Shown here in pieces: positions 33,777 through 62,452 of a stretch of DNA of 64,000 nucleotides. Each line of letters opens with the position of its first letter. The first letter of the stretch is position 1. Under the pieces are notes generated by a model that searched no databases, had not been told where the DNA came from, and was given only the letters and a program-made list of their open reading frames with translations. This DNA comes from an uncultured Dehalococcoidia bacterium. Its GTDB lineage: Bacteria > Chloroflexota > Dehalococcoidia > Lucifugimonadales > Australimonadaceae. The stretch covers positions 41,102 to 105,101 of the forward strand of contig CAZLKC010000005.1 in assembly GCA_964560025.1 (NCBI GenBank). The letters are read 5' to 3'. The position numbers and the translations under genes were made by a program.

Positions 33777-35030
33777 CTACGTCTGCGGCTCGTCGTCGGA
33801 GCCGCCCGCGACGGAGGGCAGCTCCTCGAGGGCGCGGGCGGCGCGGCGCTCGGCCTCCGCCTCCTGCCACGCGGAGCCTTCGCCGCGCGCGTTGCTATTC
33901 ACGTGCTCGATGATGGCGAGGTTGAACTCGTCGGGGCGGTAGAGACGGGTGGGCGGATTCGCGCCGTGGCGTTTCCAGTAGCGCCACTGCGCGGCGACGG
34001 GCTTGCGGTCTTGGTTGTTGAAGCGAATCTTGCGCATAGGCCGCCCCCACAGGTAGTACCAAACCTGCGTGTAGAGCCACGAGAGCGGGTTGCGGGGGAA
34101 GTGGCAGGTGAGCTGGAAGTAGGTGTAGTGGTCGGCATCCTCCGCTACGTACCACTCATACAGCATCCCCGCCTTGAAGGGGAAGTTGATGACGCGGAGG
34201 ATGCCGGGCAGGCGGAACGCGCCGCCGCGCGCGTCAACGCCCTTCAGTGGCACCGTCCCGCCGCCGCGCGGCATCTTGCGCCACAGGCGCTTGGGCGGCC
34301 ACACGCCCAGACCGGGGTACTCCGCCTGCATGATGGGCTGGTGGCTCGAGTTGCGCTGGACGAGCCACACCGCGCCGTCGTAGGGGTCGCGCACGTAGTC
34401 CGGCTCGCGGGCGACGGCGTAGCCCTGTATCTGCGAGAAGAGCAGGCCGATGGCGTCGCGGTGGAGGGTCGGGAAGTGTCCCGCGTCCTGCGTCGCGTGG
34501 TTACGCCAGTTGCCCTCGACGGTGCGGAAGCGGAACTTCACCAACGTGTCGTCCTGGAGCACCAGGCCGGGCACGTCCTCCTCCAACGGCGCGGGCGCGC
34601 CGCGCCCGAACCAGACCCACACGACACCCTTGCGCTCCTCGGTCGGGAAGGTGCGGAGGCGGAACTTGCCGACCGCCGGGCTGTCGGGGCCGTCGGTGAG
34701 GACGGCGACGCAGTTGCCGCGGTCGGCAAGGTCGAAGGTCATCCCGTGAAGGCGGCAGGTGATGGTGTCGGAGCCGGGGAATTCGTACTTGCCGTCGCTG
34801 AGCGTGTAGCCTCGATGGGGGCACTCGTCGAGGAAGGCGTAGGGCTTGCCGTTGCGCCGCACGATAGCGATCTCGTAGCCCAGGCGCGTGAAGCGCGACG
34901 GCCATCGCGTCTTCACGTCGCGCGAGCCGCAGACCGGGTACCAGTAGTTGCGCAGCCCGGTCGCGGCGCGCTCCCACACGTCCGCGCCCGGCTGCTCCAG
35001 CAGGTCGAGGTCTTCTCGTTCGTTCGCCAT
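33777..35030 (-). CDS. Rieske [2Fe-2S] non-haem-iron oxygenase, paralogue 1
   Basis: CPHRG…CRLHG Rieske motif, NWRNHATQDAGHFPTLH (D-x2-H-x4-H iron site) and an …NNQD… motif. Confidence 0.88.
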   Translation of the reverse strand: MANEREDLDLLEQPGADVWERAATGLRNYWYPVCGSRDVKTRWPSRFTRLGYEIAIVRRNGKPYAFLDECPHRGYTLSDGKYEFPGSDTITCRLHGMTFDLADRGNCVAVLTDGPDSPAVGKFRLRTFPTEERKGVVWVWFGRGAPAPLEEDVPGLVLQDDTLVKFRFRTVEGNWRNHATQDAGHFPTLHRDAIGLLFSQIQGYAVAREPDYVRDPYDGAVWLVQRNSSHQPIMQAEYPGLGVWPPKRLWRKMPRGGGTVPLKGVDARGGAFRLPGILRVINFPFKAGMLYEWYVAEDADHYTYFQLTCHFPRNPLSWLYTQVWYYLWGRPMRKIRFNNQDRKPVAAQWRYWKRHGANPPTRLYRPDEFNLAIIEHVNSNARGEGSAWQEAEAERRAARALEELPSVAGGSDDEPQT

Positions 35031-35040
35031 ACGCGCCTTC

Positions 35041-35310
35041 CTAGAAGTCGATGACGCTGCCGCGCTTGACGCGGTAGGCCACCAGCCATACCGCCGGGCC
35101 GACGGTCAGCCACAGGCCGAGCGTCGCTATCAGCGCCGTCTCGTAGCCTATCGTGCCCACTCCCGCGCGGCTTGCCACGATGCCCCAGAACACCATGCAG
35201 CACCACGACGCGAACGCGTAGAAGCCGACGAACAACAGCACGCGGAACAGCACCGTCCCGATAACGTCCCACGCGATGACGTCCCACGCCGTCTGCGCTC
35301 TGCTCTGCAT
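35041..35310 (-). CDS. Small membrane protein (89 aa)
   Basis: The ATG at 35310 is preceded by GGAGG. There are three hydrophobic segments. It lies 10 nt upstream of Rieske paralogue 1. Confidence 0.5.
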   Translation of the reverse strand: MQSRAQTAWDVIAWDVIGTVLFRVLLFVGFYAFASWCCMVFWGIVASRAGVGTIGYETALIATLGLWLTVGPAVWLVAYRVKRGSVIDF

Positions 35311-36940: not shown

Positions 36941-37705
36941 ATGATTGGCTCGTCCGCGCCCTGGTACGTGGAGTTCTTTGGCGATGACTACCTTCACGTT
37001 TACGCCGACCGCCTCACTGACGAGCACACGGAGGCGGAAGTCGCGTTCGTCGAGCGCGCCCTCGGCCTGAAGCGGGGCGACGCGGTGCTCGACCTGTGCT
37101 GCGGTCAGGGGCGCCACGCCATTCTTTTGGCTAAACACGGCATCCGCGCGACCGGCCAAGACTTGAGCGAGCGCTACATAGCCGACGCGCGCCGCCAAGC
37201 CGCCGAGCAGCGCGTCGACGCGGCGTTCGTAGCGGGCGATATGCGCCGCATCGGCGGCGTGGAGCGATACGATGCCGTCATCAATATGTTCACCGCATTC
37301 GGCTACTTGGAGGCGGACGCGGACAACGCGCAGGTGCTCCGAGGAGTGCGCCGCGCCCTGAAACCCGGCGGTCGCATCCTGATCGACGCGCTCAACCGCG
37401 AGTGGGTGCTGGCAAACCAAACGCCCGAAGAGCGCCACGACCGAGCGGACGGCGCGGCCATCGTCGAGCGCCGCGCGTTCGACGCGGCGGAAGGGCGCAA
37501 CCACGTAACGTTCGAGGTCGTGGAGGCGGACGGAACGCGGCGGCAGGCGGGCGGCCACCACATCCGCCTCTACTCGCTAAGCGAGATGCGAGCGCTGCTG
37601 GAGGAGGCGGGCTTGGCCTACGAGCGCGCCTACGGCGGCTACGACGCGGCGCCCTACACATCGGCGAGCCGCCGGATGATCGTAGTAGCGCGCAAAGCGG
37701 GCTAA
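36941..37705 (+). CDS. Class I SAM-dependent methyltransferase
   Basis: VLDLCCGQGRH (motif I), …DAVINMFTAFGY…, LKPGGRILID. Confidence 0.85.
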   Translation: MIGSSAPWYVEFFGDDYLHVYADRLTDEHTEAEVAFVERALGLKRGDAVLDLCCGQGRHAILLAKHGIRATGQDLSERYIADARRQAAEQRVDAAFVAGDMRRIGGVERYDAVINMFTAFGYLEADADNAQVLRGVRRALKPGGRILIDALNREWVLANQTPEERHDRADGAAIVERRAFDAAEGRNHVTFEVVEADGTRRQAGGHHIRLYSLSEMRALLEEAGLAYERAYGGYDAAPYTSASRRMIVVARKAG

Positions 37706-38901
37706 CGCTCGCCCGCCTCCACTAGGCGCAACTCCACCGGGCCGCCGCGGCCCTGCTGCGCTGCGTCTTCCAGTCCTTCGCCCCGGGCGTAGCGGTTGCA
37801 CATCTCGCGGAAGGCGAGCGGGAAGGCGTCGGGGCGGTACAGGGGCGTCGGCGCGTGAGGGCCGCTGCGCTTTGCGCGGTCGGTGCCGTCGCGCACCATC
37901 GCCTTGTCCTGATCGTTGAATCTCCCCTTGCGCACCGGGCGCGCCCACAGGTGGTAGAGCGCGTTGACCCACGCCCGCTCGATAGGGTTGCGCGGCCAAT
38001 GGCACGAGACCTGGAAGTATTGGTAATGGTCGGCGTCGATGGCGGTATACCACTCGAAGTAGATCGCGTCGGGCAGCGGGAAGTTGCGCACGCGCAGGTA
38101 GCCGGGCAGCCGCATAGCGGTGATGGTCTCCACGCCGTGCTGGAAGCGCTTGGGGTCGGGCAGCGCCTGCTCCATATTCGGACGGAAGAGGCGCCAGGGG
38201 CGCTTCGGCGGCCACGCGCCCAGACCGGGGAATTCGCCGCGTAGAACGGGCGGGCCGACGCGCTCGATAAGGTACTCGCCGTCCGGTCCCTCCTGCCCCC
38301 AGTAGGGGTCGGCGCCCTGGTTGGCGGCGAACAACTCCACCATCAGCAGCGCGAGCGAATCCTTGTGCAGCATCTGAAAGTGGCCGCCGCCGCTGCCCTC
38401 GGCGTGGAAGCGCCAGTTGCCGTACACCGTCCGCCGGCGGTGTTTCACCATCGCATCGTCGCGCAGCAGCAGGTAGGGAACGTCCTCCTCCAGCGGGGCG
38501 GGCACGCCGCGCCCCATCCACACCCACACGATGCCCTTGCGCTGCTCCGTCGGAAACGTGCGGATACGCACCTTGCCCACCACCGGGCTATCCGGCCCAT
38601 CCGTCAGCGCCGCCACGCACGCGCCGCTGCGCAGGTCGAACGTCCAGCCGTGGAAGCGGCAAGCGAGCGTGTCTGTGCCCGGGAATTCGTCCTTACCCAG
38701 GGACATCCGCGCGCCCCGGTGCGGGCATTCGTCCTGCACCGCGTAGACCTTGCCGCTGCGCTTGACGAACGCGATCGGCTCGCCCAGCAGGATCATGCGC
38801 TTGGGATGGCGGCCAACCTCGCGCTCGCCGAGCGCCGGGTGCCAGTAGTTCTTGAACCCGGTTACGGCGCGGTCGTAGGGCAGGGGAGCGTCGGCGATCA
38901 T
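37702..38901 (-). CDS. Rieske [2Fe-2S] oxygenase, paralogue 2
   Basis: CPHRG…CRFHG. The ATG at 38901 forms an ATGA overlap with the stop of paralogue 3. The iron-site region reads AEGSGGGHFQMLH. Confidence 0.88.
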   Translation of the reverse strand: MIADAPLPYDRAVTGFKNYWHPALGEREVGRHPKRMILLGEPIAFVKRSGKVYAVQDECPHRGARMSLGKDEFPGTDTLACRFHGWTFDLRSGACVAALTDGPDSPVVGKVRIRTFPTEQRKGIVWVWMGRGVPAPLEEDVPYLLLRDDAMVKHRRRTVYGNWRFHAEGSGGGHFQMLHKDSLALLMVELFAANQGADPYWGQEGPDGEYLIERVGPPVLRGEFPGLGAWPPKRPWRLFRPNMEQALPDPKRFQHGVETITAMRLPGYLRVRNFPLPDAIYFEWYTAIDADHYQYFQVSCHWPRNPIERAWVNALYHLWARPVRKGRFNDQDKAMVRDGTDRAKRSGPHAPTPLYRPDAFPLAFREMCNRYARGEGLEDAAQQGRGGPVELRLVEAGER

Positions 38902-40064
38902 CAACCCTCCCGCGTGGCGCCTCTGGCGCGCTCGTTGGCGTAGGCGATCCAGTCGAGGGGGTAGCGGTCGGGGCGGTAGAGGGGCGTGGGGGAGTGGTGG
39001 CCGCTGCGCTTGGCCCGGTCGGTCGAATCGCGCACCATCGCCTTGTCCTGATCGTTGAAGCGCCCCATCTTCATCGGCCCCCAATAGGCATGCCACTTCA
39101 GGTGGGTGATGAGGCGCGAGAGCGGGTTGCGCGGCCAGTGGCAGGAGACCTGGAAGTAGACGTAGGCGTCGTGGCGGATGGGCACGTACCACTCGTAGTA
39201 GAGCGCGCCGACTACCGGGAAGTGGTTGATGCGCAGCAGACCGGGCAAGCGCACGGCGGCGATGGTGCTCACGCCGTGGACGGAGCGTCCGTAGGGCTGG
39301 CTGGCGAAGCGCCACGGGCGCTTGGGCGGCCACTCGCCCAAGCCGGGGTAGGCGGCCTGGCGCGCGAGGCCGCCCGTGCGTTCCACTAGGTAGGGCGGGC
39401 CGTCGTCGCCTTCTTCGTCCGTCAGCACCGGCGCGTAGTCCTTCAGGTGCGCGAAGAAGCGGTTGGTGAGCTGGACGAACGAATCGCGGTGGAGCATCTG
39501 GAAGTGGCCGCCGTCGCCGCTCTCCGCGTGATAGCGCCAGTTGCCGTACACCACGCGCCGGCGGTGCTTGACCAACGTGTCCTCGCGCAGCATCAGCTTA
39601 GGCGCGTCCTCCTCCAACGGGACGGGCGCGCCGCGCCCCATCCACACCCACACAATCCCCTTGCGCTGCTCCGTCGGGAACGTGCGGATGCGCACCTTGC
39701 CCACGACCGGGCTATCCGGCCCGTCCGTCAGCGCCGCCACGCACGCGCCGTTGCGCAGGTCGAACGTCCAGCCGTGGAAGCGGCAAGCCAGCGTATCCGT
39801 GCCCGGGAACTCGTCCTTGCCGAGCGACATCCGCGCGCCGCGATGCGGGCATTCGTCCTGGACGGCATAGACCTTGCCGCCGCGCCGCACGAACGCGATT
39901 GGCTCGCCCAGCAGGATCATGCGCTTGGGATGGCGTCGAATCTCGCGTTCGCCGAGCGCGGGGTACCAGTAGTCCTTGAACCCGGTTACGGCGCGGTCGT
40001 AGGGAGTAGAGGCGCGCTCCTGCGTCTCTGCCGCTTCGTTGCCCTTGTCCGCCGCGCCGTCCAT
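38901..40064 (-). CDS. Rieske [2Fe-2S] oxygenase, paralogue 3
   Basis: CPHRG…CRFHG and ESGDGGHFQMLH. It is very similar to paralogue 2. The start at 40064 (MDGAADKG…) is uncertain. Confidence 0.85.
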   Translation of the reverse strand: MDGAADKGNEAAETQERASTPYDRAVTGFKDYWYPALGEREIRRHPKRMILLGEPIAFVRRGGKVYAVQDECPHRGARMSLGKDEFPGTDTLACRFHGWTFDLRNGACVAALTDGPDSPVVGKVRIRTFPTEQRKGIVWVWMGRGAPVPLEEDAPKLMLREDTLVKHRRRVVYGNWRYHAESGDGGHFQMLHRDSFVQLTNRFFAHLKDYAPVLTDEEGDDGPPYLVERTGGLARQAAYPGLGEWPPKRPWRFASQPYGRSVHGVSTIAAVRLPGLLRINHFPVVGALYYEWYVPIRHDAYVYFQVSCHWPRNPLSRLITHLKWHAYWGPMKMGRFNDQDKAMVRDSTDRAKRSGHHSPTPLYRPDRYPLDWIAYANERARGATREG

Positions 40065-40167
40065 AGGCGGGGTTGTAGCACAAGCGCGGCAGCGCCGCCA
40101 CCGGGAGGGCGCCGCCGTGCCGCGCAACGCCTTGCCGATTCGCACCTTTAGGTGCGATAATGGGTTC

Positions 40168-40374
40168 GTGACTAGCCGCGAGTTCTTCACGCGAGCGAGG
40201 GAGTATGCCCGTTAGACAGGACAAGCCTTCCGCTTCGACCCTGCCCACGGCAAAGGCAGCGACGGCAGGCTCTACGTCGGCGCGCGGTTCACTACGATGA
40301 AACGCGGCGAACTGACCAAAGGCCTGCTGGCCGCGATGCTGCGGCAGTTGAACATCGACCCAAGGGAGTTCTGA
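40168..40374 (+). pseudogene. hicA: Decayed HicA-like toxin gene (in-frame TAG at 40213-40215; the GSH His is replaced, giving GKGSDG)
   Basis: The frame reads VTSREFFTRAREYAR*TGQAFRFDPAHGKGSDGRLYVGARFTTMKRGELTKGLLAAMLRQLNIDPREF and ends 3 nt before the hicB ATG. Confidence 0.5.
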
Positions 40375-40377
40375 CCG

Positions 40378-40806
40378 ATGCTCTACGCCTACCCGTGCGA
40401 ACTGGCTGTCGACGAAGATGGCGGATTCGTCGCCACGTTTCCCGACGTGCCGGAGGCCATCACCGGCGGGAGCGACCGCGCCGAGGCGCTGGCGCTGGCG
40501 GAGGACGCCCTAGCCGCTGCGCTGGCCGGGTACGCCCACGCCAAGTGGGACATCCCCGTCCCCAGCGAGGCAGTCGACGGTCAGGCGCTAGTGGCGCCGC
40601 CGCCCGTCGTAGCCGCGAAGCTCGCTCTCTACACGGCGATGAAGGCGCAGGGCGTAACCAAGGTAGAGCTCGCCGAACGGCTCGGCGTCAGCGAGTCCGC
40701 CGTCCGCAAGCTGACCAACCCCGACCACCGCTCGCACATCAGCCAGGTGCAACGAGCACTCAAGGCCGTAGGGCGCAACCTCGCCGTAGAGGTAACCGCC
40801 GCCTGA
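40378..40806 (+). CDS. hicB: HicB-family antitoxin with a C-terminal HTH
   Basis: YPCELAVDEDGGFVATFPDVPEAITGGSDRAEALALAEDAL… (HicB fold) plus …VTKVELAERLGVSESAVRKL… (HTH). Confidence 0.85.
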   Translation: MLYAYPCELAVDEDGGFVATFPDVPEAITGGSDRAEALALAEDALAAALAGYAHAKWDIPVPSEAVDGQALVAPPPVVAAKLALYTAMKAQGVTKVELAERLGVSESAVRKLTNPDHRSHISQVQRALKAVGRNLAVEVTAA

Positions 40807-40848: not shown

Positions 40849-41853
40849 CTAGGAAGCGGCGCTGCCGACGGTGTCGAGGATGAGGCGCGTCACCACGTAC
40901 GGGTCCATATTGGCGTTGGGGCGCCTGTCCTCGAGGTAGCCCTTCTGCTCGCGCTCCACCTGCCAGGGGATGCGGATGGACGCGCCCCGGTCGGAGACGC
41001 CGTACTTGAAGGTCTTGTAGGAAGCCGTCTCGTGGAGGCCGGTCAGGCGCTCCTCGATGCCCGCGCCGTAGTTGGCGATGTGGAGGTCGTGCTTGCCCTT
41101 CAGCGCCTCGATAGCGGCCAAGATGGGCGGGTAGGACTCGCGCATCGCCTTGGTCGAGAAGTTGGTGTGCGCCCCCGCGCCGTTCCAGTCGCCGCGCGCA
41201 GGCTTGGGGTCGAGCGTCGCGCTGATTTCGAAGTCTTCGCCGACGCGGTAGAGCAGCCAGCGTGCGAGCCACAACTCGTCCCCGATGCGCGGCGCGGCGA
41301 GCGGGCCGACCTGGAATTCCCATTGGCCCGGCATCACCTCGGCGTTGATGCCGGAGATGAGCAGCCCCGCCTCGAGGCAGACGCTCAGGTGCTCCTCGAC
41401 CACCTCGCGGCCGAACACCTCGTCGTCGCCCACGCCGCAGTAGTAGCCGCCCTGGGGCGCCGGGTAGCCGCCCTGAGCGGGAAAGCCGAGCGGCCGGGCG
41501 CCCTTGAAGAAGGTGTACTCCTGCTCGATGCCGAAGATCATCTCCAGCCCGGCGAAGCGCTCGCCGACCTCGGCGCAAGCGCGGCGCGTGTTCGTCGGGT
41601 GCGGCGACATGTCCGACAGCAGCACCTCGCACATCACCAGTTTGTCGCCCTCGTCGCGCAGCGGGTCGTCGATGGAGTGAACGGGCTGCAGCACGCAGTC
41701 GGAGGAGTCGCCCGCGGCCTGGTTGGTGCTGGAGCCGTCGAAGCCCCAGATGGGGGGCTCTTCGCCGACGGGCACGATCTTCGTCTTGGAGCGCAACTTC
41801 GCCGTCGGCTGCGTGCCGTCAACCCAGATGTACTCGGCCTTGTAGTGGTCCAT
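40849..41853 (-). CDS. glnII: Glutamine synthetase type II (eukaryote-like GSII)
   Basis: AEYIWVDG…GFDGSSTNQA…EVMPGQWEFQVGP…NGAGAHTNFS…. Confidence 0.92.
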   Translation of the reverse strand: MDHYKAEYIWVDGTQPTAKLRSKTKIVPVGEEPPIWGFDGSSTNQAAGDSSDCVLQPVHSIDDPLRDEGDKLVMCEVLLSDMSPHPTNTRRACAEVGERFAGLEMIFGIEQEYTFFKGARPLGFPAQGGYPAPQGGYYCGVGDDEVFGREVVEEHLSVCLEAGLLISGINAEVMPGQWEFQVGPLAAPRIGDELWLARWLLYRVGEDFEISATLDPKPARGDWNGAGAHTNFSTKAMRESYPPILAAIEALKGKHDLHIANYGAGIEERLTGLHETASYKTFKYGVSDRGASIRIPWQVEREQKGYLEDRRPNANMDPYVVTRLILDTVGSAAS

Positions 41854-41989: not shown

Positions 41990-44113
41990 TCATCCCCCCG
42001 CCTCGGCCAGCGCTTGACGGAAGTGGACGGCTCGGACGGTGAGAGGAGCGCCGTCAGTGGCGGGGGCGGCGTCTACGCGCTCGCGGATGGCCAAGAAGGC
42101 GGCGCGGCGGCAGAGAGCGGCTAGGGCGGAGCCGGGCATTTCCTCTGAAGCGTCGGCGACGGCGTCCAGGTCTACGTCGGGGGCGAGAGGCATGCCGCGC
42201 GTGTGGACGGCAAGAATCTCGCGGCGCGAGGCGCGATCGGGTAGGGCGAGGTCAACGCGCTGTTCGAGGCGTCCGGCGCGCAGCAGGGCGGGGTCGAGCG
42301 CGGCGGGGCGGTTGGTGGCGGCGAGCACGACAACGCCGGGCGCCGCCTCGATGCCGTCCAGTTCGGCGAGGAGTTGGCTGAGGGCGGCGTCGCCCCCCGC
42401 CGACGCGCCCGCGTCGCGCCGGGAGGCGAGCGAGTCCAGCTCGTCGATGAAGACGATGCACGGGCTGGCCTGCTTCGCCTTGCGGAACACCTCGCGCACC
42501 TTGCGCGCCGATTCGCCCACCCACGGAGAGAGCAACTCCGGCCCTTTGACCGCGATGAAGTTGGCATTCGATTGGCTGGCGACGGCTTTGGCGAGCAGCG
42601 TCTTGCCGGAGCCCGGCGGGCCGGAGAGCAGTACGCCCTTGGGCGGCGCGGCGCGGGCGGCCTCGAACAGGCCGCGATGGCGCAACGGCCATTCGATCGC
42701 CTCGCGCAGCGCGCGCTTGGCGTCGCCCAGCCCGCCCACGTCGTCCCAGCGCACGTCGGGAATCTCGGTGAATACCTCGCGGATGGCGGACGGCTCCACC
42801 TCCTTGAGCGCGTCGAGGAAGTGCTCCTCGCGCACCTCGATGCCCGCGAGCAGGTCGTCGGGCAGGAACTCCGCCTCGCCGCGGATGCGGGGCATCAACT
42901 CGCGGAGCGTAACCATCGCCGCCTCGCGGCAGAGGGCGGCCAGGTCGGCGCCCACGAATCCGTGCGTCAACTCGGCCAGCCGCTCCAGGTCGACGTCGTC
43001 TGCCAGCGGCATCCCGCGCGTGTGCACTTGCAGCACCTCGAGGCGTCCGTTGCGGTCGGGCACGCCGATGGTGAGTTCGCGGTCGAGGCGGCCGGGGCGC
43101 CGCAGGGCGGGGTCGAGCGTGTTGGGCACGTTCGTCGCGCCGATGACGACCACCTGGCCGCGCGCCTGGAGGCCGTCCATCAGCGAGAGGAGTTGCGCGA
43201 CGACGCGGCGCTCCACCTGCTGGAACGCGCCCACCTCCTCGCGCTTGGGGGCGATGGCGTCGATCTCGTCGATGAAGATGATGGCAGGCGCGCGGGCGGC
43301 GGCCTCCTCGAACACCGCGCGCAGGCGCTCCTCCGATTCGCCGTAGAACTTGCCGATGATTTCCGGCCCGCCGATGCTGACGAAGTGCGCCGAGGTCTCG
43401 TTGGCGACCGCCTTGGCGATGAGCGTCTTGCCCGTCCCCGGCGGCCCGTAGAGCAGCACGCCGCGCGGCGGCTCGATGCCCAAGCGCAGGAAGAGTTCGG
43501 GGTAGCGCAGCGGCAACTCGATCATCTCGCGGATGCGCTGTATCTCCCTGCGCAGGCCGCCGATGTCCTCGTAGGTCACGCCTGCGCCTTCGCGCTGCTC
43601 GGCGCGCTCGACGCTCTCGCCGCGCACCTTCAGGTCGGTGGCGGCGGTAACCACCACCGCGCCTTTGGGGCGCGTCTCGACCACGGTGAACTCGCGGTAG
43701 ACGCCGCCCAAGAAGGTGGCGCGCACCTTGTCGTCGGGCTGCACGGCCATCCCCAGCAGCACGTTGGCGACGTGGCGGCGCTCCGATTCGCCGTGCTCGC
43801 GCTGCGGCGCCCCCATAGGCGCGAGCACGACGGCGCGCGCGTCGGGCGCCGTCAGCCGCTCGACCTCCACCCATTCGTCGATGGTCGCGTCGGCGTTCTC
43901 GCGCACGATGCCGTCCATACGCACGAGCGCCTTGCCGCGCTGTTCGGCGTAGGCGGGCAGCGCCTTGGCGACCGTCCCGCGCTTGCCGCTGACGCGCACC
44001 ACGTCGCCCGACTGGAGGCCGAGGCGGGGCATATCGGCGCGGTCGACACGGACGACGCCGCGCCCCACGTCGCGCGCCTCCGCCTCCGCCACCTTCAACC
44101 TGATGCTCGCCAT
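41990..44113 (-). CDS. CDC48/VCP-like double-AAA+ ATPase
   Basis: N-terminal double-psi barrel-like region plus two Walker A sites (GPPGTGKT, GPPGSGKT) and two Walker B sites (IIFIDEID, IVFIDELD). Confidence 0.92.
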   Translation of the reverse strand: MASIRLKVAEAEARDVGRGVVRVDRADMPRLGLQSGDVVRVSGKRGTVAKALPAYAEQRGKALVRMDGIVRENADATIDEWVEVERLTAPDARAVVLAPMGAPQREHGESERRHVANVLLGMAVQPDDKVRATFLGGVYREFTVVETRPKGAVVVTAATDLKVRGESVERAEQREGAGVTYEDIGGLRREIQRIREMIELPLRYPELFLRLGIEPPRGVLLYGPPGTGKTLIAKAVANETSAHFVSIGGPEIIGKFYGESEERLRAVFEEAAARAPAIIFIDEIDAIAPKREEVGAFQQVERRVVAQLLSLMDGLQARGQVVVIGATNVPNTLDPALRRPGRLDRELTIGVPDRNGRLEVLQVHTRGMPLADDVDLERLAELTHGFVGADLAALCREAAMVTLRELMPRIRGEAEFLPDDLLAGIEVREEHFLDALKEVEPSAIREVFTEIPDVRWDDVGGLGDAKRALREAIEWPLRHRGLFEAARAAPPKGVLLSGPPGSGKTLLAKAVASQSNANFIAVKGPELLSPWVGESARKVREVFRKAKQASPCIVFIDELDSLASRRDAGASAGGDAALSQLLAELDGIEAAPGVVVLAATNRPAALDPALLRAGRLEQRVDLALPDRASRREILAVHTRGMPLAPDVDLDAVADASEEMPGSALAALCRRAAFLAIRERVDAAPATDGAPLTVRAVHFRQALAEAGG

Positions 44114-44575: not shown

Positions 44576-45667
44576 CTAGCTGGGCGTGATGACGCCGCGC
44601 CCGACCGCGCCACGCTCGAGCTCGTCGTAGGCCTCGTTGATCTCGTCGAGGCGGTAGCGGCGGGTGATGAGGCCGCCCACGTCGATCTTGCCCGCGTTGG
44701 TCAACTCGACCATCCGATGCATGTCGTTGGCGGGGATAGCGGAGCCGTAGTAGCTGCCTTTGATCACCTTCTCCTGCCGCACCAACTGGACGGCGTCGAC
44801 GCCGAACTGCTCTCCCACCGGGGCGAGGCCGGCGATGACGACCGTGCCGCGCTTGCGGGCGGCGTCGAACGCCGCCGTCGACGTCTCCGTCGAGCCGAAC
44901 GCCTCGAAGGTGAAATCCGCGCCGCCGTCCGTCAACTCGCGGACGCGCTTCACCGGGTCCACGTCGCGCGGGTTGACTACGTCGGTCGCGCCGAAGCGGC
45001 CCGCGAACTCCAGCGCCGCGTCGTTCACGTCCACGGCGATGATCTTGCCCGCGCCCGACAGCCGCGCGCCCTGGACGATGTTCAGCCCCACGCCGCCGAC
45101 GCCGAAGACGGCGACGGACGTGCCGGGGCGCACCTCGCCGCAGAAGAGCGCCGCGCCCACGCCGGTGGTTACGCTGCATCCGATGAGCGCCGCCTGCTCC
45201 AGCGGGAAGTCGTCGGCGATGGGAATGCAGCCAGTCTCGGGGACGACGGCTTGCTCGGCGAAGCAGGCGACCTTGCCCATATGGGCGAGGTCTTCGCCGC
45301 CTGCGTGGAGGCGGACGGTGCGGTCGAACAGCGTGCCCGCCGTGGCCATATGCAGGTCGCACAGGTTGGCGTGTCCGCTCAGGCAGGAGAGGCATTGGCC
45401 GCAGTGAGGCGCGAAGGAGAGGATGACGTGGTCGCCGGGCTTGACGCGGCTGACGTGGCCGCCGACCTCCTCGACCACGGCGGAGCCCTCGTGCCCCAGG
45501 ACGGCGGGCGTGCGGATGGCGGCGGCGCCGTGCATGAAGTGCAGGTCGCTGCGGCACACTCCGGCTGCGGCGATTCGCACACGCACCTCGTGCTCCTTGG
45601 GCGGGTCGAGCTCCACCTCCTCGATCGAGAGGGGCTTGTTGACCTCGCGCAGAACCGCTGCCTTCAT
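44576..45667 (-). CDS. Zinc-dependent alcohol dehydrogenase (class III / thiol-formaldehyde-DH-like)
   Basis: GVCRSDLH, GHEGSAVVEEVG, CGQCLSCLSG, GVGGVG. Confidence 0.92.
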   Translation of the reverse strand: MKAAVLREVNKPLSIEEVELDPPKEHEVRVRIAAAGVCRSDLHFMHGAAAIRTPAVLGHEGSAVVEEVGGHVSRVKPGDHVILSFAPHCGQCLSCLSGHANLCDLHMATAGTLFDRTVRLHAGGEDLAHMGKVACFAEQAVVPETGCIPIADDFPLEQAALIGCSVTTGVGAALFCGEVRPGTSVAVFGVGGVGLNIVQGARLSGAGKIIAVDVNDAALEFAGRFGATDVVNPRDVDPVKRVRELTDGGADFTFEAFGSTETSTAAFDAARKRGTVVIAGLAPVGEQFGVDAVQLVRQEKVIKGSYYGSAIPANDMHRMVELTNAGKIDVGGLITRRYRLDEINEAYDELERGAVGRGVITPS

Positions 45668-45732: not shown

Positions 45733-46137
45733 CTACGCCTTCGCCTTGGGCCGCAGCCAGAACATCACGGCGACGATGAGGCCGACCGCGAGCATCGCCA
45801 GGCCGGTTAGCCAATGGAATTCGTACACCATCGCGGCCATCGCAACCGCCGCGCCCAAGATCAGCACGAGCACCACGCCCAGACCTTCCGTCGGCGCCTT
45901 GGGGACGTAGCGCGCACGAAACTCGGCGCGGCGGCGCGCTTCTTCGGCCAGCGCCTCGGGCGAACCGTAGAGAGGCTGCGAGGCGTCCGGCTGCGGCCTG
46001 CCCCAGAACATCAGCGCGACGGCCACGCCTATGAGCGCCATCACTAGTCCCGACGCCCACGGCATCTCGTAGACGAGGGCGGCGGTGAGCGCCGCGCCCG
46101 CAAGGACGATCAGCGTAACGGCGGCGAACTCGCGCAT
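45733..46137 (-). CDS. Four-helix membrane protein built from an internal duplication
   Basis: VYEMPWASGLVMALIGVAVALMFWGRPQP and VYEFHWLTGLAMLAVGLIVAVMFWLRPKA are repeats. Confidence 0.6.
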   Translation of the reverse strand: MREFAAVTLIVLAGAALTAALVYEMPWASGLVMALIGVAVALMFWGRPQPDASQPLYGSPEALAEEARRRAEFRARYVPKAPTEGLGVVLVLILGAAVAMAAMVYEFHWLTGLAMLAVGLIVAVMFWLRPKAKA

Positions 46138-46172: not shown

Positions 46173-47369
46173 CTATCGCGCGACGCCGAACGCTATCGCC
46201 CGCTCGCCCGGGTCTTCCGACGCGTTCATGCGGGCGGCGACGGCGGCGACTAGGCGGCCTCCCTCCGTCTGCTCCCAGAACCAGCGATGCAAGTCGGCGC
46301 GGTCTACGCCCGGGCGCTGGGCCATCCGCGCCTCGTAGTAGAACGCCTTGAGGTCGTCAACGGCGTAGCGGACGAACTGAGCCAGACGCAGGTCGGACGG
46401 CCGCTCGTCAGTGTCGGCCTCCCCTTCCATACGCTCGTAGTCGTAGAGGAAGCGCACGAGGGCGCGGAAGCGGCGCGCGGACACGCGGCTCAGGCCTACG
46501 GCGGTGCGTCCGCCGTTGTCCGCCACCCACCGCTCGTGGTAGGGGCGGAGGCGCGCAACTTCGTCCGTCGCGTTTTCGTCCGGCGGCGCCTCCGGCGTGG
46601 CCCGCGAGGCTTGGAGCAATTCGACGGAGCCCGTCTCCTCCTCCGGCCACACAGCCAAGACCGGCGTCTCATCCATCGGAAGCAACGCAAGGGCGGAGCG
46701 CAGCACGCGGAGCTGCAAGTCGGCGTCCTTAGGCCACCCGAACGCCATGCCGAACGGAAAAGGGACGGCCAAAACGCGCGGAGGCTTGACGCGTTCCGCG
46801 TGCTCCCTCACCAGCGCCACGCCGACCGTCGGCAGGCCCGCCTCCTCGAACACGCGCGCAATCACACACAACGTGTGCGTGCAAAGCGGTCAAGTGGGGG
46901 TCAGCAGCACCGCGTCGGCACCGTCGTCGATGAGGCGGCGCGCTACCTCCGGCGCGGATTCCTCCGCCGTGCGGCGCGGGTCGCGCTGCGCGCCGAGGAA
47001 GGAGTAGACGCGGGGCGCGAGCGCCCCAACCTCGCCGACGGCAACCAACTCGCGGACGCGGTCGAGGGGCAGCGTTACGTTCAGGTCGGTGTAGATGGCG
47101 GTGCGGTCGAACCCGATGCTGGTGTGGCTCTGCAACACGTCGGCGGGATTCGCGTCGGCGGGGAAGACGCGGTAGGTGTGGTCGGGCGGCGTGGTGTGGC
47201 GGAAGGGCGCGTCGTCCCGCAGGTGCAGCCCCGCCGTGGTTACGACGACGAGCGTGGATTCGGCAAGCGGCTTGCGCAGCGGCGCGGAGGGCGCGTCGTC
47301 GTGCTCCAACGCCGGAAAGTTCAGTAGCGTGGTTCGTTCGACTTCGCTGAGGCGTTCGAGGAGGGGCAT
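46173..47369 (-). CDS. GrdB-family (glycine/sarcosine/betaine/D-proline reductase component B-like) protein with an in-frame TGA at 46890-46892, a probable selenocysteine
   Basis: Track ORFs 46890..47369 and 46173..46871 are in the same frame, 7 codons apart. Reading through gives …[33 protein letters not shown]…, matching the GrdB T-U-x-x-C…AG(I/L)P(T/V)V region. There is a strong SD before 47369 and none before the TTG at 46871. Confidence 0.75.
46863..46879 (-). other. Candidate bacterial SECIS hairpin
   Basis: The mRNA reads UGA-CCGCUUUGCA-CGCACAC-GUU-GUGUGUG. This is a 17-nt hairpin (7 bp including one G-U) starting 11 nt after the UGA, with GU in the apical loop. Confidence 0.5.
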
Positions 47370-47409
47370 TCGTTTCTCCTTCCAGGCGAGATAGCCAAGG
47401 CCGGGAGCG

Positions 47410-51593
<4,184 letters not shown>

Positions 51594-57641: not shown

Positions 57642-60215
57642 ATGTACGCCGCCATCCTGCTATGGCTGGTGCTGCTGGAGGCGCTGAGCCTCGTCGTCTT
57701 TCCTCTGGCCTACCGCGCCTTCGGCTCGCTGCCCGGCCGCGGCTATGCGTTCGCCAAGCCGTTGTCGCTATTGCTCGTCGCGTTCGTGGCGTGGCTCGCC
57801 GCGTTCTCCACTTTCATCCCTAATTCACGATGGTCGGTGCTGCTTGCGATCGTCGTGGCGGCTGCGCTGTCGTGGCTGGCGGCGCGGCGCTTGGGCGGCG
57901 AGATGCTGGCGTTCTTCCGCAAGGAGCGCTGGCTCGTGCTCACGACGGAGGCGGTGTTCATCGGCGTCTTCTTGGCGTTCGCCTTCTACCGCGCGACGAC
58001 GCCGGAGATATCGCACACCGAGCAGCCGATGGACTTTATGTTCCTCAACGCCGTCGTCACCAGCCCTTCCTTCCCGCCGAGCGACCCGTGGTTGGCGGGC
58101 GAGGCGGTGTCTTACTACTACTTCGGTTACTGGATGGTCGGCGCGTTGACGCTGCTGTCCGGCCTGGCCACGCCCGTTGCCTACAACCTCGGCTTGGCGA
58201 CGGCGGCGGCGATGGCGGCGGCGGCGGTCTACGGCGTGGTGGTTGCGCTCGTGCTGCGCGGGGGAGGTTCGCGAGCGGCGGCGGCGGCGGCCGGGCTTGG
58301 GGGCGTCTTCCTGCTTTTGTTCGCGAGCAACCTGGGCGGGGCGCTGCACCTCGCGCAGGCGGCGGGCGGAGGGTCGGCCTCATTCTGGACGTGGCTCGGC
58401 GTCGAGAGCCTGCCGCCGGGGGTGGAGGCGAGCGCCGATTGGCGCCCGTCGCGCTTCTGGTGGTGGTTCGGCGCGAGCCGCATCGTGCCGAACGCCATCA
58501 ACGAGTTCCCCGCCTTCAGCTTCGTCCTGGGCGACCTCCATCCGCACGTTATGTCCATCGGCTTCCTGCTGCTTGCGCTGGCGGCGGCGCTGGGCCTGTA
58601 CGCGACGCCCGACCTGCTCGGCGGCCGCGAGGCGCTGCGGCGGCAGTGGCCGTTGCTGCTCGCGGCGGCGCTCTCGCTCGGCGCGTTGGCGGCGGTGAAC
58701 CTGTGGGACTTGCCGACGGGCGTGGCGCTGATAGCCGGGGCGGCGCTGCTGAACGCGGCGCGCCACGGGCGCCGCCACCGCTTGCGTCTGTCGCGCGCCG
58801 TCGCCCTCGCCGTCGGATTGACCGCCGGAGCGCTGCTGTGCTTCACGCTCTTCTTCGTCTGGTTCGAATCGACGGCGGACGGCGTGCTGCCGCTGCGCCA
58901 ACTGCTGACGCGTCCGCCGCACCTGGTGTTGCTGTGGGGCGCCGCGGGTCTCTTGTTCCTGCTGCTGCTTCTATCGGCGGCGCCGCACGCGATGAGCGCG
59001 CCGGGCGCCCGCGCGATACGCTACGGCGTAACGGCCTACGTAGGGCTTGCGCCGGTGATTCTGTGGTTCCAGCCCGTCTGGGGGCCGTTGGTCTACGTCG
59101 CCATCGCCATATTAGGCACGCTCCTCGGCCTGTTCGTGCTGCGCCGGGCAGGGGTGAGGATACTTGCGCCGGACGAGACGAACACGACGGGCACGGGCAC
59201 GGGCTTGACCTTCTACATCGGCGTCGCGGCCTTGCTGGGGCTCCTCATCTACGACGGCGTAGTGAACGGGGCGCGCGACGCGGAAGGCAACATCATCGTC
59301 GTCGACCGGCTGATGATCACGCTGCCGATGGCCGCCGTGGTCGTCTTCGCTATGTTCGCCGCGTGGTCGCTGGCGCACCGCGACGGCATAACGTGGCAAC
59401 CGCGCTGGGAGGGCGTCGTCCCGGCGCTGGCCGTCGGCGCGATAGCCGTGGCGCTCATTATGGGCGCGGAGCTGTTCCACGTCGTGGACTTCTTCGGCGG
59501 CGACCTCCGCCGTATGAACACGATGTTCAAGCTCCACTACCAGGCGTGGACGCTGCTTGCGGTCGTCGGCGGATTCGCCTTGTGGCACGTAACCACGCGC
59601 CTCGACCTGACCCGCCTGCGCGGACGCGCGGGTATGGCGTGCTGGGCGGCGGCGCTGATGCTCGGTCTGGGCGCGCTCGCCTACTATCCTCTAGCCGCTA
59701 TGACCGACCGCGCCAGCCCCGATTCGCCGATGCGCCTCGATGGACAGGCCGGCCTCGCCCAATCGTCGCCGGAGGAGTGGGCGGCCATCCAATGGGTGCG
59801 CGAGAACCTGCCGCGCGACGCCGTGCTCCTCGAGGCCGCCGAGATCCCCTGCGCCGATGCCTCGGGCGGATGCAGCGACTGGACGCCCGTCGGCAGGGTG
59901 GCGGGCAGCACGGGGCGGGCGACGCTCCTCGGCTGGGAGCAGCACGAACTCCAATGGCGCGCGTCGGGCGCGTCCGTCTCAGGGCGGCGCGGCGACGTGC
60001 GTGCCATCTACGAGGCGCAAGACTCGGCGGAGGCCGGGGCGCTGCTCGCGCGCTACGGCGTGGACTACGTGTACGTCGGCCAGCGCGAGCGTCGCGCCTA
60101 CGGCGAGGGCGGCTCGGCCAAGTTCGCGCAGTTGGGCAACGCCGTCTACACGACGGGCGACGGCAGCCGCGCGGTAACCATCTACCGCGTCGGCGCGGGG
60201 GCCGGCGCGCGATGA
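57642..60215 (+). CDS. Chlor_Arch_YYY / DUF2298 family large membrane protein
   Basis: SYYYFGYW (the YYYxG motif) and about 850 aa of strongly hydrophobic sequence. Confidence 0.85.
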   Translation: MYAAILLWLVLLEALSLVVFPLAYRAFGSLPGRGYAFAKPLSLLLVAFVAWLAAFSTFIPNSRWSVLLAIVVAAALSWLAARRLGGEMLAFFRKERWLVLTTEAVFIGVFLAFAFYRATTPEISHTEQPMDFMFLNAVVTSPSFPPSDPWLAGEAVSYYYFGYWMVGALTLLSGLATPVAYNLGLATAAAMAAAAVYGVVVALVLRGGGSRAAAAAAGLGGVFLLLFASNLGGALHLAQAAGGGSASFWTWLGVESLPPGVEASADWRPSRFWWWFGASRIVPNAINEFPAFSFVLGDLHPHVMSIGFLLLALAAALGLYATPDLLGGREALRRQWPLLLAAALSLGALAAVNLWDLPTGVALIAGAALLNAARHGRRHRLRLSRAVALAVGLTAGALLCFTLFFVWFESTADGVLPLRQLLTRPPHLVLLWGAAGLLFLLLLLSAAPHAMSAPGARAIRYGVTAYVGLAPVILWFQPVWGPLVYVAIAILGTLLGLFVLRRAGVRILAPDETNTTGTGTGLTFYIGVAALLGLLIYDGVVNGARDAEGNIIVVDRLMITLPMAAVVVFAMFAAWSLAHRDGITWQPRWEGVVPALAVGAIAVALIMGAELFHVVDFFGGDLRRMNTMFKLHYQAWTLLAVVGGFALWHVTTRLDLTRLRGRAGMACWAAALMLGLGALAYYPLAAMTDRASPDSPMRLDGQAGLAQSSPEEWAAIQWVRENLPRDAVLLEAAEIPCADASGGCSDWTPVGRVAGSTGRATLLGWEQHELQWRASGASVSGRRGDVRAIYEAQDSAEAGALLARYGVDYVYVGQRERRAYGEGGSAKFAQLGNAVYTTGDGSRAVTIYRVGAGAGAR

Positions 60216-62452
60216 GCGGCGGCGCAACAGCGCGAGGCCGGGCCGGGCGGACGTGGGCGGCTCTGCGCGCGCAGGTCGCTGCGTTGAGCGCGTGGGCGCG
60301 CGCCAATCGCACGGACGCGGCCTTGCTCGCCCTGCTTGCGGCGCTGGCGCTCGGGACGCGCTTGTGGGACGTGGGCGGGCGCACGCTGCACTACGACGAA
60401 ATCCTGCACGCGTGGTACGCGTGGATCTTCAGCGAGGGCGGCGGCTACTCCCACACGCCGCTGACGCACGGGCCGTTCCTGTTCCACGCGGCGGCGGCGA
60501 CCTACTGGGTTATCGGAACGAGCGACGTCGCCGCGCGGCTGCTCCCCGCCCTCTTCGGCGCGGCGCTGGTGCCGATGCCCTACCTGCTGCGCAACGAACT
60601 GGGGCGCGTGGGCGCGCTCGCCGCCTCGGCGCTGCTGCTCATCTCGCCGACGATGCTCTACTTCGGCCGGTTCGTCCGCAACGACGTCTATATGGCGGTA
60701 TGGGCGCTGGCCATCGTCATCCTGATCTACCGCTACGCCGAGCGCCCGCGCCCGTGGATGCTCTTCGCGTGGGCGGCGCTGTGGGCGTTCGCCTTCACCA
60801 CCAAGGAGACGACCTACTTCCTCGCGGGCATCGTGGGGCTGGCGCTGTTTGCGATGTCGTGGCGCGGCTTCTGGGCGTGGGCCAAGGGCGAGCGCAAGCT
60901 CGCCGCGCTGCCCCCGGCGGGGACGCTGCTGCTGGTGCTGGCGACGCTGTCGGCGCCGCTGTTCGCTCCGGCAGCGGGGCTGGCGCAGGATTGGGCGGGC
61001 ATCGTGTTGGTCAATCCCGATCCGAACCACCCCGGCGTGATAGGCGGCAGCGTCGTCCGCGCCGACGCGGAGACGGGCGCGCCGGTGAGCGGGGCGCTCT
61101 ACATCGCGGTGGTCTTAGTGGCGATGCTCGCCGCGCTGTCCATAACGCTCGGCTTGCTGTGGAACCGGCGGCTATGGCCGCGGCTGGCGCTCACCTTCGG
61201 CGGCTTGTGGCTCGTGCTCTTCACGAGCGTCTTCACCAACTGGCAAGGCTTCTTCACCGGGCTCTGGGGCTCGCTCGGCTACTGGATGGCGCAGCAGCCC
61301 GTGGGTAGGGCAGGGCAGCCGTGGCACTACTACTTCCTCGGCCTCTCCACCTACGAGTTCCTGATCGCCGCGCTTGCCCTGGCGGGCGGCGCGTACCTGC
61401 TCTTCCGGGGCAAGCCGTTCGACCGATTCATCCTCTTCTGGGCGGCGGCGACGCTCGGCGCGGGCATCTACGCGGGCGAGAAGATGCCCTGGCTGCTGAT
61501 GGGCATAACGCTGCCGTTGGCCATCATCGCCGGGCGCGCCGTCGGCCTGCTTCTCGGAGCGGCGCTGCGCCACCCTGCGCTCGAGGCGGAGGGCGGCGAG
61601 CGCCTCCTAGCGCGACTAGCCAGGCGGTTGAAGGGCGACGCCGCACGAACGGTATGGGCGGGCGTCGGCGGACTGGCGATAGCGAGTATGGGCGCCTACG
61701 CCGTCGTGCGCGTTGCGCGCGACGAGGCGTTCGCGTCGAGCGAGCGATTCTGGGTTCCCGTCGTCCTCGCGCTGCTTGGCGCGGTCGTTCTGGCGCTGAC
61801 GTCGCGCAAGGAGTGGCGCAAGCCCGCCTTGGCGGCGGCGGCGCTGGGCGTGGTCGTCTGCCTTACGGGGATGACCGTGCTGGTGAGCGCGCGCGCCGCC
61901 TACTCCTACGCGGGCTACGAGCGCCCGACGGAATTGCTGGTCTACTCGCAGACGGGGCAGGAGACGACCTACGCCGCCGAGTGCATCGCCAAACTGGCCG
62001 AGCGCAGCGGGTTGGGACGCGAAGGGCTGCGGGTGGTGAGCGGCGAGTCGGACAACTTCGCGTGGCAGTGGCGCTGGTACCTGCGCGACTACCACAACGT
62101 GACCTACCGCAACCTGGGCGCCGACCCGCCCGACGCGCCGCTCGAAGCCGACGTGGTGCTGGCGAGCCGGGGCGTCGCCTCCGCCGCGTCGCCGTTCCTT
62201 GCGGGATTCACGGAGGTCGGGAGGCTCAACCACCTGTGGTGGTTCCCGAACGCCTCCTACCGCGACCTGACGCTCGGCGGGATGGCGCGCGGGATAACGG
62301 AGCGGGAGGGTTGGCGGGTGAGCGTTGACTACTTCTTCGCGCGGGGGTTCGACAGCGCGATGCAGCGCTCGCAGGGGGCGGTGTACGTAGCGGACGGCCT
62401 CGCGCATATGGCCCAAGCCTGCACGCGGCTGCGGGCGGCTAGCGAGGGCTAG
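60212..62452 (+). CDS. TIGR03663-family membrane protein (GT39/PMT-like glycosyltransferase fold)
   Basis: LHYDEILHAW (DE) and THGPFLFH (HGP), the family hallmarks as I recall them. It forms an ATGA overlap with the YYY gene. The 1540-aa track ORF is over-extended. Confidence 0.85.
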   Translation: MSGGATARGRAGRTWAALRAQVAALSAWARANRTDAALLALLAALALGTRLWDVGGRTLHYDEILHAWYAWIFSEGGGYSHTPLTHGPFLFHAAAATYWVIGTSDVAARLLPALFGAALVPMPYLLRNELGRVGALAASALLLISPTMLYFGRFVRNDVYMAVWALAIVILIYRYAERPRPWMLFAWAALWAFAFTTKETTYFLAGIVGLALFAMSWRGFWAWAKGERKLAALPPAGTLLLVLATLSAPLFAPAAGLAQDWAGIVLVNPDPNHPGVIGGSVVRADAETGAPVSGALYIAVVLVAMLAALSITLGLLWNRRLWPRLALTFGGLWLVLFTSVFTNWQGFFTGLWGSLGYWMAQQPVGRAGQPWHYYFLGLSTYEFLIAALALAGGAYLLFRGKPFDRFILFWAAATLGAGIYAGEKMPWLLMGITLPLAIIAGRAVGLLLGAALRHPALEAEGGERLLARLARRLKGDAARTVWAGVGGLAIASMGAYAVVRVARDEAFASSERFWVPVVLALLGAVVLALTSRKEWRKPALAAAALGVVVCLTGMTVLVSARAAYSYAGYERPTELLVYSQTGQETTYAAECIAKLAERSGLGREGLRVVSGESDNFAWQWRWYLRDYHNVTYRNLGADPPDAPLEADVVLASRGVASAASPFLAGFTEVGRLNHLWWFPNASYRDLTLGGMARGITEREGWRVSVDYFFARGFDSAMQRSQGAVYVADGLAHMAQACTRLRAASEG

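Follow-up and report, generated by a model that had tools for sequence, protein, structure and literature searches.

A window of 64,000 nucleotides (64 kb) from an uncultured Dehalococcoidia bacterium (Chloroflexota; Lucifugimonadales; Australimonadaceae; assembly GCA_964560025.1, contig CAZLKC010000005.1, positions 41,102 to 105,101) was analysed, and all positions below are those of this window. On its minus strand, positions 47369-46173 very probably constitute one gene whose product is a cytoplasmic selenoprotein with two domains, belonging to the GrdB/PrdB superfamily, and in which the in-frame UGA at codon 160 is read as selenocysteine (Sec). The unity of the gene, the conservation of the UGA in a Cys/Sec column and the presence of a covarying hairpin at the distance expected of a selenocysteine insertion sequence (SECIS) are established or strongly supported by the comparisons below, and the sequence evidence indicates that the UGA most likely encodes Sec.

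On the minus strand, an open reading frame (ORF) of 159 aa (47369-46890) and one of 232 aa (46871-46173) lie in a single frame and are separated by a TGA (46892-46890) followed by the six sense codons CCG CTT TGC ACG CAC ACG, as read from the sequence. The opening codon of the 232-aa ORF is the TTG at 46871, in the same frame as the 159-codon ORF. The single gene (46173..47369, minus strand) starts at the ATG 47369-47367 and ends with the TAG 46175-46173, comprising 398 sense codons, with the UGA counted as Sec at codon 160, and the stop codon. Its read-through product of 398 residues includes a U-P-L-C motif, of which the putative Sec (U160; 46890..46892) is the first residue and Cys163 (46883-46881) the last. 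A Shine-Dalgarno (SD)-like sequence, GGAAGGAG (47376..47383, minus strand, read directly), is separated from the ATG at 47369 by a 6-nt spacer and contains AAGGAG. No comparable SD motif was found before the TTG at 46871, nor before the GTG at which gene callers start the second half. The original prediction, made from the letters of the window, had described the two ORFs in one frame with the TGA and six sense codons between them, the peptide obtained by reading through, and the strong SD upstream of the first half with none for the TTG-started half, and direct reading reproduces each of these. Third-position GC content is high in both halves (0.91 and 0.84) in a window of 69% GC. The genetic code is not reassigned, since UGA is the ordinary stop of 10 of the 34 Pfam-supported genes in the window. 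As an aside, stop usage in these 34 genes (TAG 22, TGA 10, TAA 2) looked unexpected in its preference for TAG, as TGA would be expected to dominate in a genome of 69% GC.

A scan of one genome per GTDB species identified 209 loci with relatives of this gene, of which the best 80 were fetched; counts over 81 sequences refer to these 80 loci together with the window gene. The hosts are mostly Dehalococcoidia, among them SAR202 and sponge-derived Chloroflexota bins, the others being Ca. Entotheonella/Tectimicrobiota and one member of the Terriglobia. Residues 1-398 are matched in 79 of the 80 loci and residues 1-396 in the remaining one (L077). TGA is found at the identical codon in all 80 loci (81/81 with the window), and never TAA, TAG or a sense codon, in the context LTPT-U-P[LAF]-C-[TS]-H-[TA]-V, and the Cys of the U-x-x-C motif is likewise invariant (81/81). 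An exhaustive profile search yielded 2241 matches at E<=0.001, and the more distant relatives among them have CPxC, rarely SPxC, at the UGA position. In proteins P0005-P0007 and P0241-P0344 the UGA falls opposite the first Cys of CPxC, while in the PrdB protein P0314, with which the window protein shares 30% identity over 197 residues (E 9e-36), U160 is opposite C151 and C163 opposite C154 of a C-G-T-C motif. The TGA therefore falls in the conserved U/C column, which is the alignment check that the original prediction had proposed. The strict retention of Sec suggests that the protein performs a function in which selenium matters.

Downstream of the UGA, a SECIS-like hairpin (46858..46882, minus strand) is localised inside the coding sequence. 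Its core comprises a G-C and a C-G pair (46882-46881 with 46859-46858), a 3x3 internal loop, a 5-bp stem CACAC/GUGUG (46877-46873 with 46867-46863), placing the hairpin 13 nt after the UGA, and the loop GUUGU. A hairpin of 7 bp with a 3-nt loop had originally been predicted here (CGCACAC-GUU-GUGUGUG, 46879-46863, from the 11th nt after the UGA), and for this register the local minimum free energy (MFE) of the 27-nt element is -10.8 kcal/mol. A hairpin is present at this place and is supported by covariation, while the 7-bp register is peculiar to the window, where a (GU)n run permits it, and the register of the family is that with a 5-bp stem and 5-nt loop; both registers share one place.

The consensus of the hairpin was derived from a gapless alignment of the 81 sequences from UGA-6 to UGA+68, and consists of the pairs G17-C41 and C18-G40, the 3x3 internal loop, a stem of columns 22-26 with 32-36 and a 5-nt loop. 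Pairing is observed in 100% of the stem cells of the alignment and in 99.3% of those of the whole structure, compared with 9-57% in controls in which the 3' partner was slid by one to three columns, and the hairpin exceeds all slid and shuffled controls. At the pair 25-33, 39 sequences have A-U, another 39 have G-C and two have G-U, with no broken case. At least five state changes of this pair can be placed on a neighbour-joining protein tree, with G-U intermediates in L031 and L079 and one reversal in L035. Column 25 opens a Thr/Ala codon, and column 33 is the synonymous third base of a Ser/Cys/Gly codon, so that protein constraints do not explain the coupling of the two. Published bacterial SECIS (bSECIS) elements have a loop of 3-9 nt, an upper stem of at least 4 bp, a G among the two leading nucleotides of the loop, a distance of 16-37 nt from the UGA to the loop and an MFE of -7.5 kcal/mol or lower (PMC13188914). 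The element in the window has a loop of 5 nt, an upper stem of 5 bp (with two further lower pairs) and a UGA-to-loop distance of 17 nt; across the alignment, a G stands at loop position 1 or 2 in 81/81 sequences and the MFE is -7.5 kcal/mol or lower in 80/81. The stem cannot be formed by two Cys-type homologues (L082 and L083), the hairpin being kept in the TGA forms only. An extended lower helix (columns 12-15 with 43-46, and 21 with 37) was also considered but is conserved only partly and is not claimed.

Several observations weigh against a Sec-encoding UGA. No selA, selB, selD or tRNA-Sec gene was found within the 64-kb window, of which the approximately 63 ORFs were scanned against Pfam and the tRNAs, which are specific for Arg and His only, were sought separately, and no tRNA-Sec occurs in the 60 related loci (L001-L060) scanned for tRNAs. 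When folded alone, the 76 nt following the UGA are no better than chance (z = -0.36 versus shuffles); single-sequence folding is, however, uninformative for a gene of 69% GC, and the significance of the hairpin is therefore carried by the comparative data. In Rfam, the region gives only two chance matches at E<=10 (a miRNA and a flavivirus frameshift element), the presence of a bacterial-SECIS model in Rfam being unchecked. The stem coincides with the codons of conserved residues (His-Thr/Ala ... Ser-Val), and part of its conservation is hence at the protein level, while the 'GU' of the loop falls on a Val codon and is not retained in the clade of the window (GUUGU, GGGGU, CGGGU).

Hairpins 3' of stop codons can stimulate read-through. 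Together with the lack of Sec machinery in the window, this would suit a UGA that is read through without Sec, by a near-cognate Trp, Cys or Arg tRNA or a suppressor tRNA, with the hairpin slowing the ribosome or stimulating the event. This is considered very unlikely, as the UGA occupies the catalytic Cys/Sec column of a family of which the characterised members are selenoproteins (PMC13188914), and TGA is kept without exception across three phyla, when drift to TGC or TGT would be expected if Cys were equally good. The hairpin furthermore fits the spacing and loop rules of bSECIS elements, and Sec machinery has been reported as common in sponge-symbiont bins, in most of which SelA and SelB co-occur (PMC5649159).

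The selenoprotein is predicted to consist of two domains. The first is a PrdB/GrdB-like alpha/beta domain with the UxxC motif (residues ~1-230; 46680..47369, minus strand), delimited by Pfam GRDB, TIGR04483 and a structural model. It passes the gathering threshold of GRDB (PF07355; 44.3 bits versus a cut-off of 22, E 1.9e-11), with residues 3-159 aligned to profile positions 193-347 of 347, the match ending at the last profile position. Among the NCBIfam models, PrdB is matched best (TIGR04483; 1e-40, positions 21-218 of ~238), although the score of 139.6 bits lies below the equivalog cut-off of 300, which is passed by the control protein P0314 (453.2 bits, positions 1-238). The GrdH, GrdF and GrdB models follow (GrdB 1.8e-10), and TIGR01918 (52.6 versus 65.45 bits), GrdB TIGR01917 (40.4 versus 602) and GrdH (59 versus 775) all fall below their cut-offs. 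The GrdB-type profiles (TIGR01917, TIGR01918 and NF040794/5) are matched only from position ~191 to ~418-431, the N-terminal ~190 residues of the ~430-aa GrdB being missing. By these profile scores the protein belongs to the superfamily without being a full PrdB or GrdB, PrdB being the nearer of the two. This corrects the earlier assignment to the GrdB family.

The structure was read from the AlphaFold model of P0006, a 46%-identical Cys homologue (mean pLDDT 90.5, pTM 0.89). In this model a beta-strand (residues 150-154) precedes a helix (158-173), and Cys157, the equivalent of U160, is found at the helix N-terminus, an arrangement that redox-active CxxC/UxxC pairs usually have. The second domain, which PrdB and GrdB lack, is all-helical (residues ~250-398; 46176..46622, minus strand), with seven helices of at least 4 residues modelled at high pLDDT between residues 260 and 395 of P0006, and holds conserved sequence motifs in the homologue alignment. 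No Pfam or NCBIfam family covers residues ~250-398, a PDB sequence search at E<=10 gave no match, and a Foldseek search of the P0006 model against the PDB gave nothing at E<=0.001, the best match being a photocobilin B12-binding protein (E 5e-3, TM ~0.25). There is consequently no functional lead from structure, as the fold family has no solved representative. In some distant relatives, such as P0320 and P0344, a PrdB-like CPxC domain is found behind an N-terminal XRE-type helix-turn-helix and is followed by a different C-terminal helical tail, suggesting possible regulatory or sensor uses of the PrdB-like domain.

The PrdB of Clostridium sticklandii and C. difficile (TIGR04483) shares with the window protein a homologous alpha/beta domain, a Sec in the same U-x-x-C column and an in-frame UGA followed by a hairpin in the coding region. 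Unlike PrdB, the window protein carries a helical C-terminal domain of ~150-170 residues and scores below the 300-bit cut-off, its gene is not accompanied by prdA (coding for the pyruvoyl proprotein), prdC, prdD/E or prdF, and its host belongs to a Chloroflexota lineage (SAR202 and sponge-associated relatives) rather than being a Stickland-fermenting clostridium. With GrdB, GrdF and GrdH (PF07355, TIGR01917/01918) it has in common the passing of the GRDB threshold and the UxxC motif, and its GRDB match stops exactly where GrdB sequences are truncated, at their Sec. It lacks, however, the N-terminal ~190 residues, only profile positions 191-431 being matched, the second Cys of the UxxCxxC motif of GrdB is not conserved, and the grdA/C/D/E genes are missing from the window. 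The absence of grdA, grdC, grdD and grdE from the vicinity, already remarked upon in the original prediction, was borne out by the scan of the ~63 ORFs of the window, which did not reveal prdA or prdC/D/E/F either, and no prd or grd partner was recognised by eye in the 16 most frequent neighbour clusters of the 80 loci. The best family matches (PrdB, then GrdH/GrdF/GrdB) and the JGI name 'D-proline reductase (dithiol) PrdB' given to homologues would favour a true PrdB of D-proline reductase, or a true GrdB of glycine/sarcosine/betaine reductase, with its partners encoded elsewhere in the genome. The sub-threshold scores, set against the 453 bits of a real PrdB, the additional C-terminal domain, the missing N-terminal part of GrdB, the lack of partner genes and the change of neighbours from clade to clade make this a highly improbable explanation.

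That the two halves belong to one polypeptide is further indicated by the homologues. A search of the read-through product against 5.8 billion proteins gave 382 relatives at E<=0.001; among the best 120, 117 are fragments of ~224-238 aa starting just past the TGA position, and three (P0005-P0007; 45-48% identical) are full-length proteins of 393-399 aa with the motif LLTP[TS]-C-P[LV]-C. With the N-terminal part as query, 669 relatives were obtained, of which the best 120 are all fragments, nearly all of 152-165 aa, and almost all of these end where the TGA falls. They are labelled 'glycine/sarcosine/betaine reductase selenoprotein B family protein' by NCBI and 'D-proline reductase PrdB' by JGI. 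The exact halves of the window gene, P0121 and P0395, are separate coding sequences on a 126,945-bp NCBI contig, the public annotation consisting of a 159-aa 'selenoprotein B family' fragment that stops at the UGA and a 230-aa 'hypothetical protein'. This separate listing by gene callers and in the NCBI record, and the existence of a TTG or GTG start just past the TGA, could point to two separate genes, one coding for a truncated 159-aa GRDB-domain protein and the other for an independent protein of ~230 aa. The halves are, however, in one frame with a gap of 0-6 codons in 81/81 loci, the second half has no SD, and the PrdB profile match (residues 29-230) crosses the TGA position uninterrupted. 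Moreover, the Cys-containing homologues are single proteins of 393-419 aa which span the site with CPxC at that position, and in the AlphaFold model of P0006 the junction falls midway through a single alpha/beta domain. Two genes are hence scarcely credible, and neither homologues that genuinely end here nor a true two-gene arrangement, both of which the original prediction had named as evidence that would count against it, were encountered. A pseudogene or a sequencing or assembly error, for which a single TGC-to-TGA change in a Cys-type gene would suffice and which the errors in metagenome-assembled genomes bring to mind, is effectively refuted by the occurrence of the same TGA in 80 assemblies that are independent of one another, come from various samples and phyla and include complete chromosomes built from long reads, by the third-position GC of 0.84-0.91 on both sides and by purifying selection on the downstream part (52-97% amino-acid identity).

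Two further features of the region bear on its annotation. The plus strand carries a GC-rich shadow ORF of 346 aa (46287-47327), antisense to the larger part of the selenoprotein gene, and a naive ORF chooser took similar antisense ORFs in 42 related loci, which represents a trap for the automated annotation of these GC-rich genomes. The sole candidate for a second recoded gene in the window is found at 40214-40806 (plus strand), where a HicA-like short ORF ends with a TGA (40372-40374) in frame with a HicB-like antitoxin/helix-turn-helix gene starting at 40378. It mimics a split gene but is an ordinary toxin-antitoxin pair, and was rejected as a selenoprotein.

In the mechanism proposed for the single selenoprotein gene, the ribosome would decode the UGA at codon 160 as Sec, as judged from the comparison of homologues. 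The short hairpin, which lies within ~40 nt past the UGA and whose apical loop would begin at the 18th nt (17 nt between), is predicted to recruit the SelB-GTP-Sec-tRNA(Sec) complex, as in other bacterial selenoprotein genes. In the folded protein, Sec160 and Cys163 would lie where a helix begins, at its N-terminus, after a beta-strand of the PrdB-like alpha/beta domain, and by analogy with PrdB the selenol may act as the nucleophilic, redox-active centre. Homology further suggests that a selenenylsulfide could form between Sec160 and Cys163 and be re-reduced by an external dithiol or redox protein. A predicted redox Sec/Cys pair at a helix N-terminus, spaced by two residues and with selenenylsulfide cycling, would by analogy also resemble the UxxC/CxxC oxidoreductases of the thioredoxin-like (Trx-like), peroxiredoxin-like (Prx-like) and DsbA-like types, although the fold is unrelated to the thioredoxin fold and has no PDB match at E<=0.001. 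From its sequence features the protein is predicted to be a stand-alone oxidoreductase or reductase which is neither a D-proline nor a glycine reductase, since neither a PrdA/GrdE pyruvoyl partner nor GrdA/C/D is encoded in the window, and since an extra helical C-terminal domain is present. Without a pyruvoyl partner, C-N cleavage of the PrdA/PrdB type cannot be assumed.

The selenoprotein gene is flanked by genes coding for a transketolase (47410-49443) and a small membrane protein of 134 aa (45733..46137, minus strand). The latter, located between the selenoprotein gene and an alcohol dehydrogenase (ADH) gene, belongs to no recognised family and shows an internal duplication, with two similar halves that each contain a pair of hydrophobic segments (LIVLAGAALTAALVYEMPW and LVLILGAAVAMAAMVYEFHW); L001, the closest locus, is the only one in which the protein is conserved. 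The ADH, two genes downstream of the selenoprotein gene (44576..45667, minus strand), is a class-III-like Zn enzyme with ADH_N and ADH_zinc_N domains, and its linkage is uncertain. Its best NCBIfam match is the N,N-dimethyl-4-nitrosoaniline (NDMA)-dependent ADH, at 358 bits below the cut-off of 440. Synteny was determined by tblastn and an ORF choice that takes third-position GC into account. Relatives of the ADH (56-59% identical) are encoded upstream of the selenoprotein gene on the same strand in 33 other loci, as the nearest upstream gene in 22 loci, with gaps down to ~20 nt, and downstream in L001. In approximately 20 loci of another clade, a glyoxalase-I-like protein of the vicinal oxygen chelate (VOC) superfamily is encoded directly downstream, with a glyoxalase-II-like metallo-beta-lactamase (MBL)-type hydrolase near, while the Entotheonella loci have other neighbours, such that the neighbourhood varies between clades. 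A gene for a GcvH-like lipoyl carrier is located directly downstream of two Cys-type relatives, but was rejected as a general partner as it is absent from all Sec-type loci, the window and two further Cys-type contexts. No gene is a universal partner, and the ADH and VOC genes that recur nearby provide a lead rather than a result. In P0399, encoded on a JGI contig of 14,259 bp, a Cys-type PrdB-like protein is fused with the downstream GcvH-like carrier into a 518-aa protein (join ...DDPAMKI|TSILYSDLH...), through a short in-frame deletion relative to positions 8001-9600 of L082. Being a single occurrence, it was rejected as a recurrent fusion; strain variation or an error of assembly could account for it.

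A more specific and unlikely proposal is that marine and sponge-associated Chloroflexota and Entotheonella have in this protein a stand-alone selenoenzyme whose chemistry is as yet undescribed for the GrdB/PrdB family. In one version, a protein-bound selenol/thiol could partner thiol-adduct-type, aldehyde-detoxifying enzymes, which would fit the recurrent neighbours, namely the class-III-like ADH in 36 of the 81 loci and the glyoxalase-I-like VOC and glyoxalase-II-like MBL proteins in ~20 others. In another, the protein could be a reductase that is re-reduced by a lipoyl carrier, a version suggested by the GcvH-like gene next to the two Cys-type relatives. Either way, substrate binding would fall to the C-terminal helical domain in place of the pyruvoyl subunit.

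In the Sargasso Sea, selenoproteins of the PrdB type with a UxxC motif (pfam07355) ranked third in abundance among the known selenoprotein families, with 42 genes and one Cys homologue (PMC1088965), and PrdB was among the top selenoprotein families of the Global Ocean Sampling (GOS) data, with 235 genes and 110 Cys homologues (PMC2398784). Anaeromyxobacter and Geobacter are examples of non-Stickland bacteria for which 'proline reductase' selenoproteins have also been listed, and the Chloroflexi have been listed with three selenoproteins in three families (PMC1794560). The window gene resembles the marine-metagenome 'proline reductase PrdB' selenoproteins of Zhang and Gladyshev in its family (pfam07355), its UxxC motif and its provenance, these being abundant in uncultured marine bacteria. 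By family and motif it would fall in the 'PrdB' category of these surveys. Orphan selenoproteins of the PrdB type have thus been known in marine metagenomes since 2005-2008, and the gene is expected rather than surprising to a specialist. In contrast to the accounts of PrdB in these surveys, where they are undescribed, the two-domain architecture, its hosts (Dehalococcoidia/SAR202 and Entotheonella) and the SECIS covariation are reported here; these, and the strict Sec retention, were not found in the literature cited.

The gene adds to the evidence that UGA is decoded as Sec in the Dehalococcoidia/SAR202 and Ca. Entotheonella lineages. Hundreds of homologue clusters appear in public databases only as fragments of ~156-160 and ~230 aa, and this systematic split annotation loses the active-site residue and hides the architecture of the whole protein. 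The question of the substrate of orphan PrdB-like selenoproteins dates from the Sargasso Sea counts of 2005, and starting points for it are given by the covariation in the SECIS and by the ADH and VOC genes found repeatedly nearby, which do not resolve the function.

Elsewhere in the window, three paralogues of Rieske/homotrimeric ring-hydroxylases are encoded on the minus strand within 7 kb (33777-35105, ~37705-38850 and 38901-40190). Nearby are genes coding for an amidase, a gamma-glutamyltranspeptidase, two M20 peptidases, an Ldh_2 dehydrogenase and a class-III aminotransferase, a gene set that represents a catabolic repertoire typical of SAR202-like Chloroflexota. At 57642-62452 (plus strand), a 1540-aa ORF (57830-62452) overlaps a DUF2298 gene (57642-60215) in a different frame, and its 3' part (60200-62449) codes for a PMT_2 glycosyltransferase domain; a frameshifted fusion is one reading of the region, and two adjoining genes with a lengthy shadow extension are the other. 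A type II glutamine synthetase (40849-41853, minus strand), matching the GlnII equivalog at 597 bits versus a cut-off of 500, is encoded in a Chloroflexota-like context, and its gene is adjoined by one coding for a CDC48-type double AAA ATPase (41990-44113).

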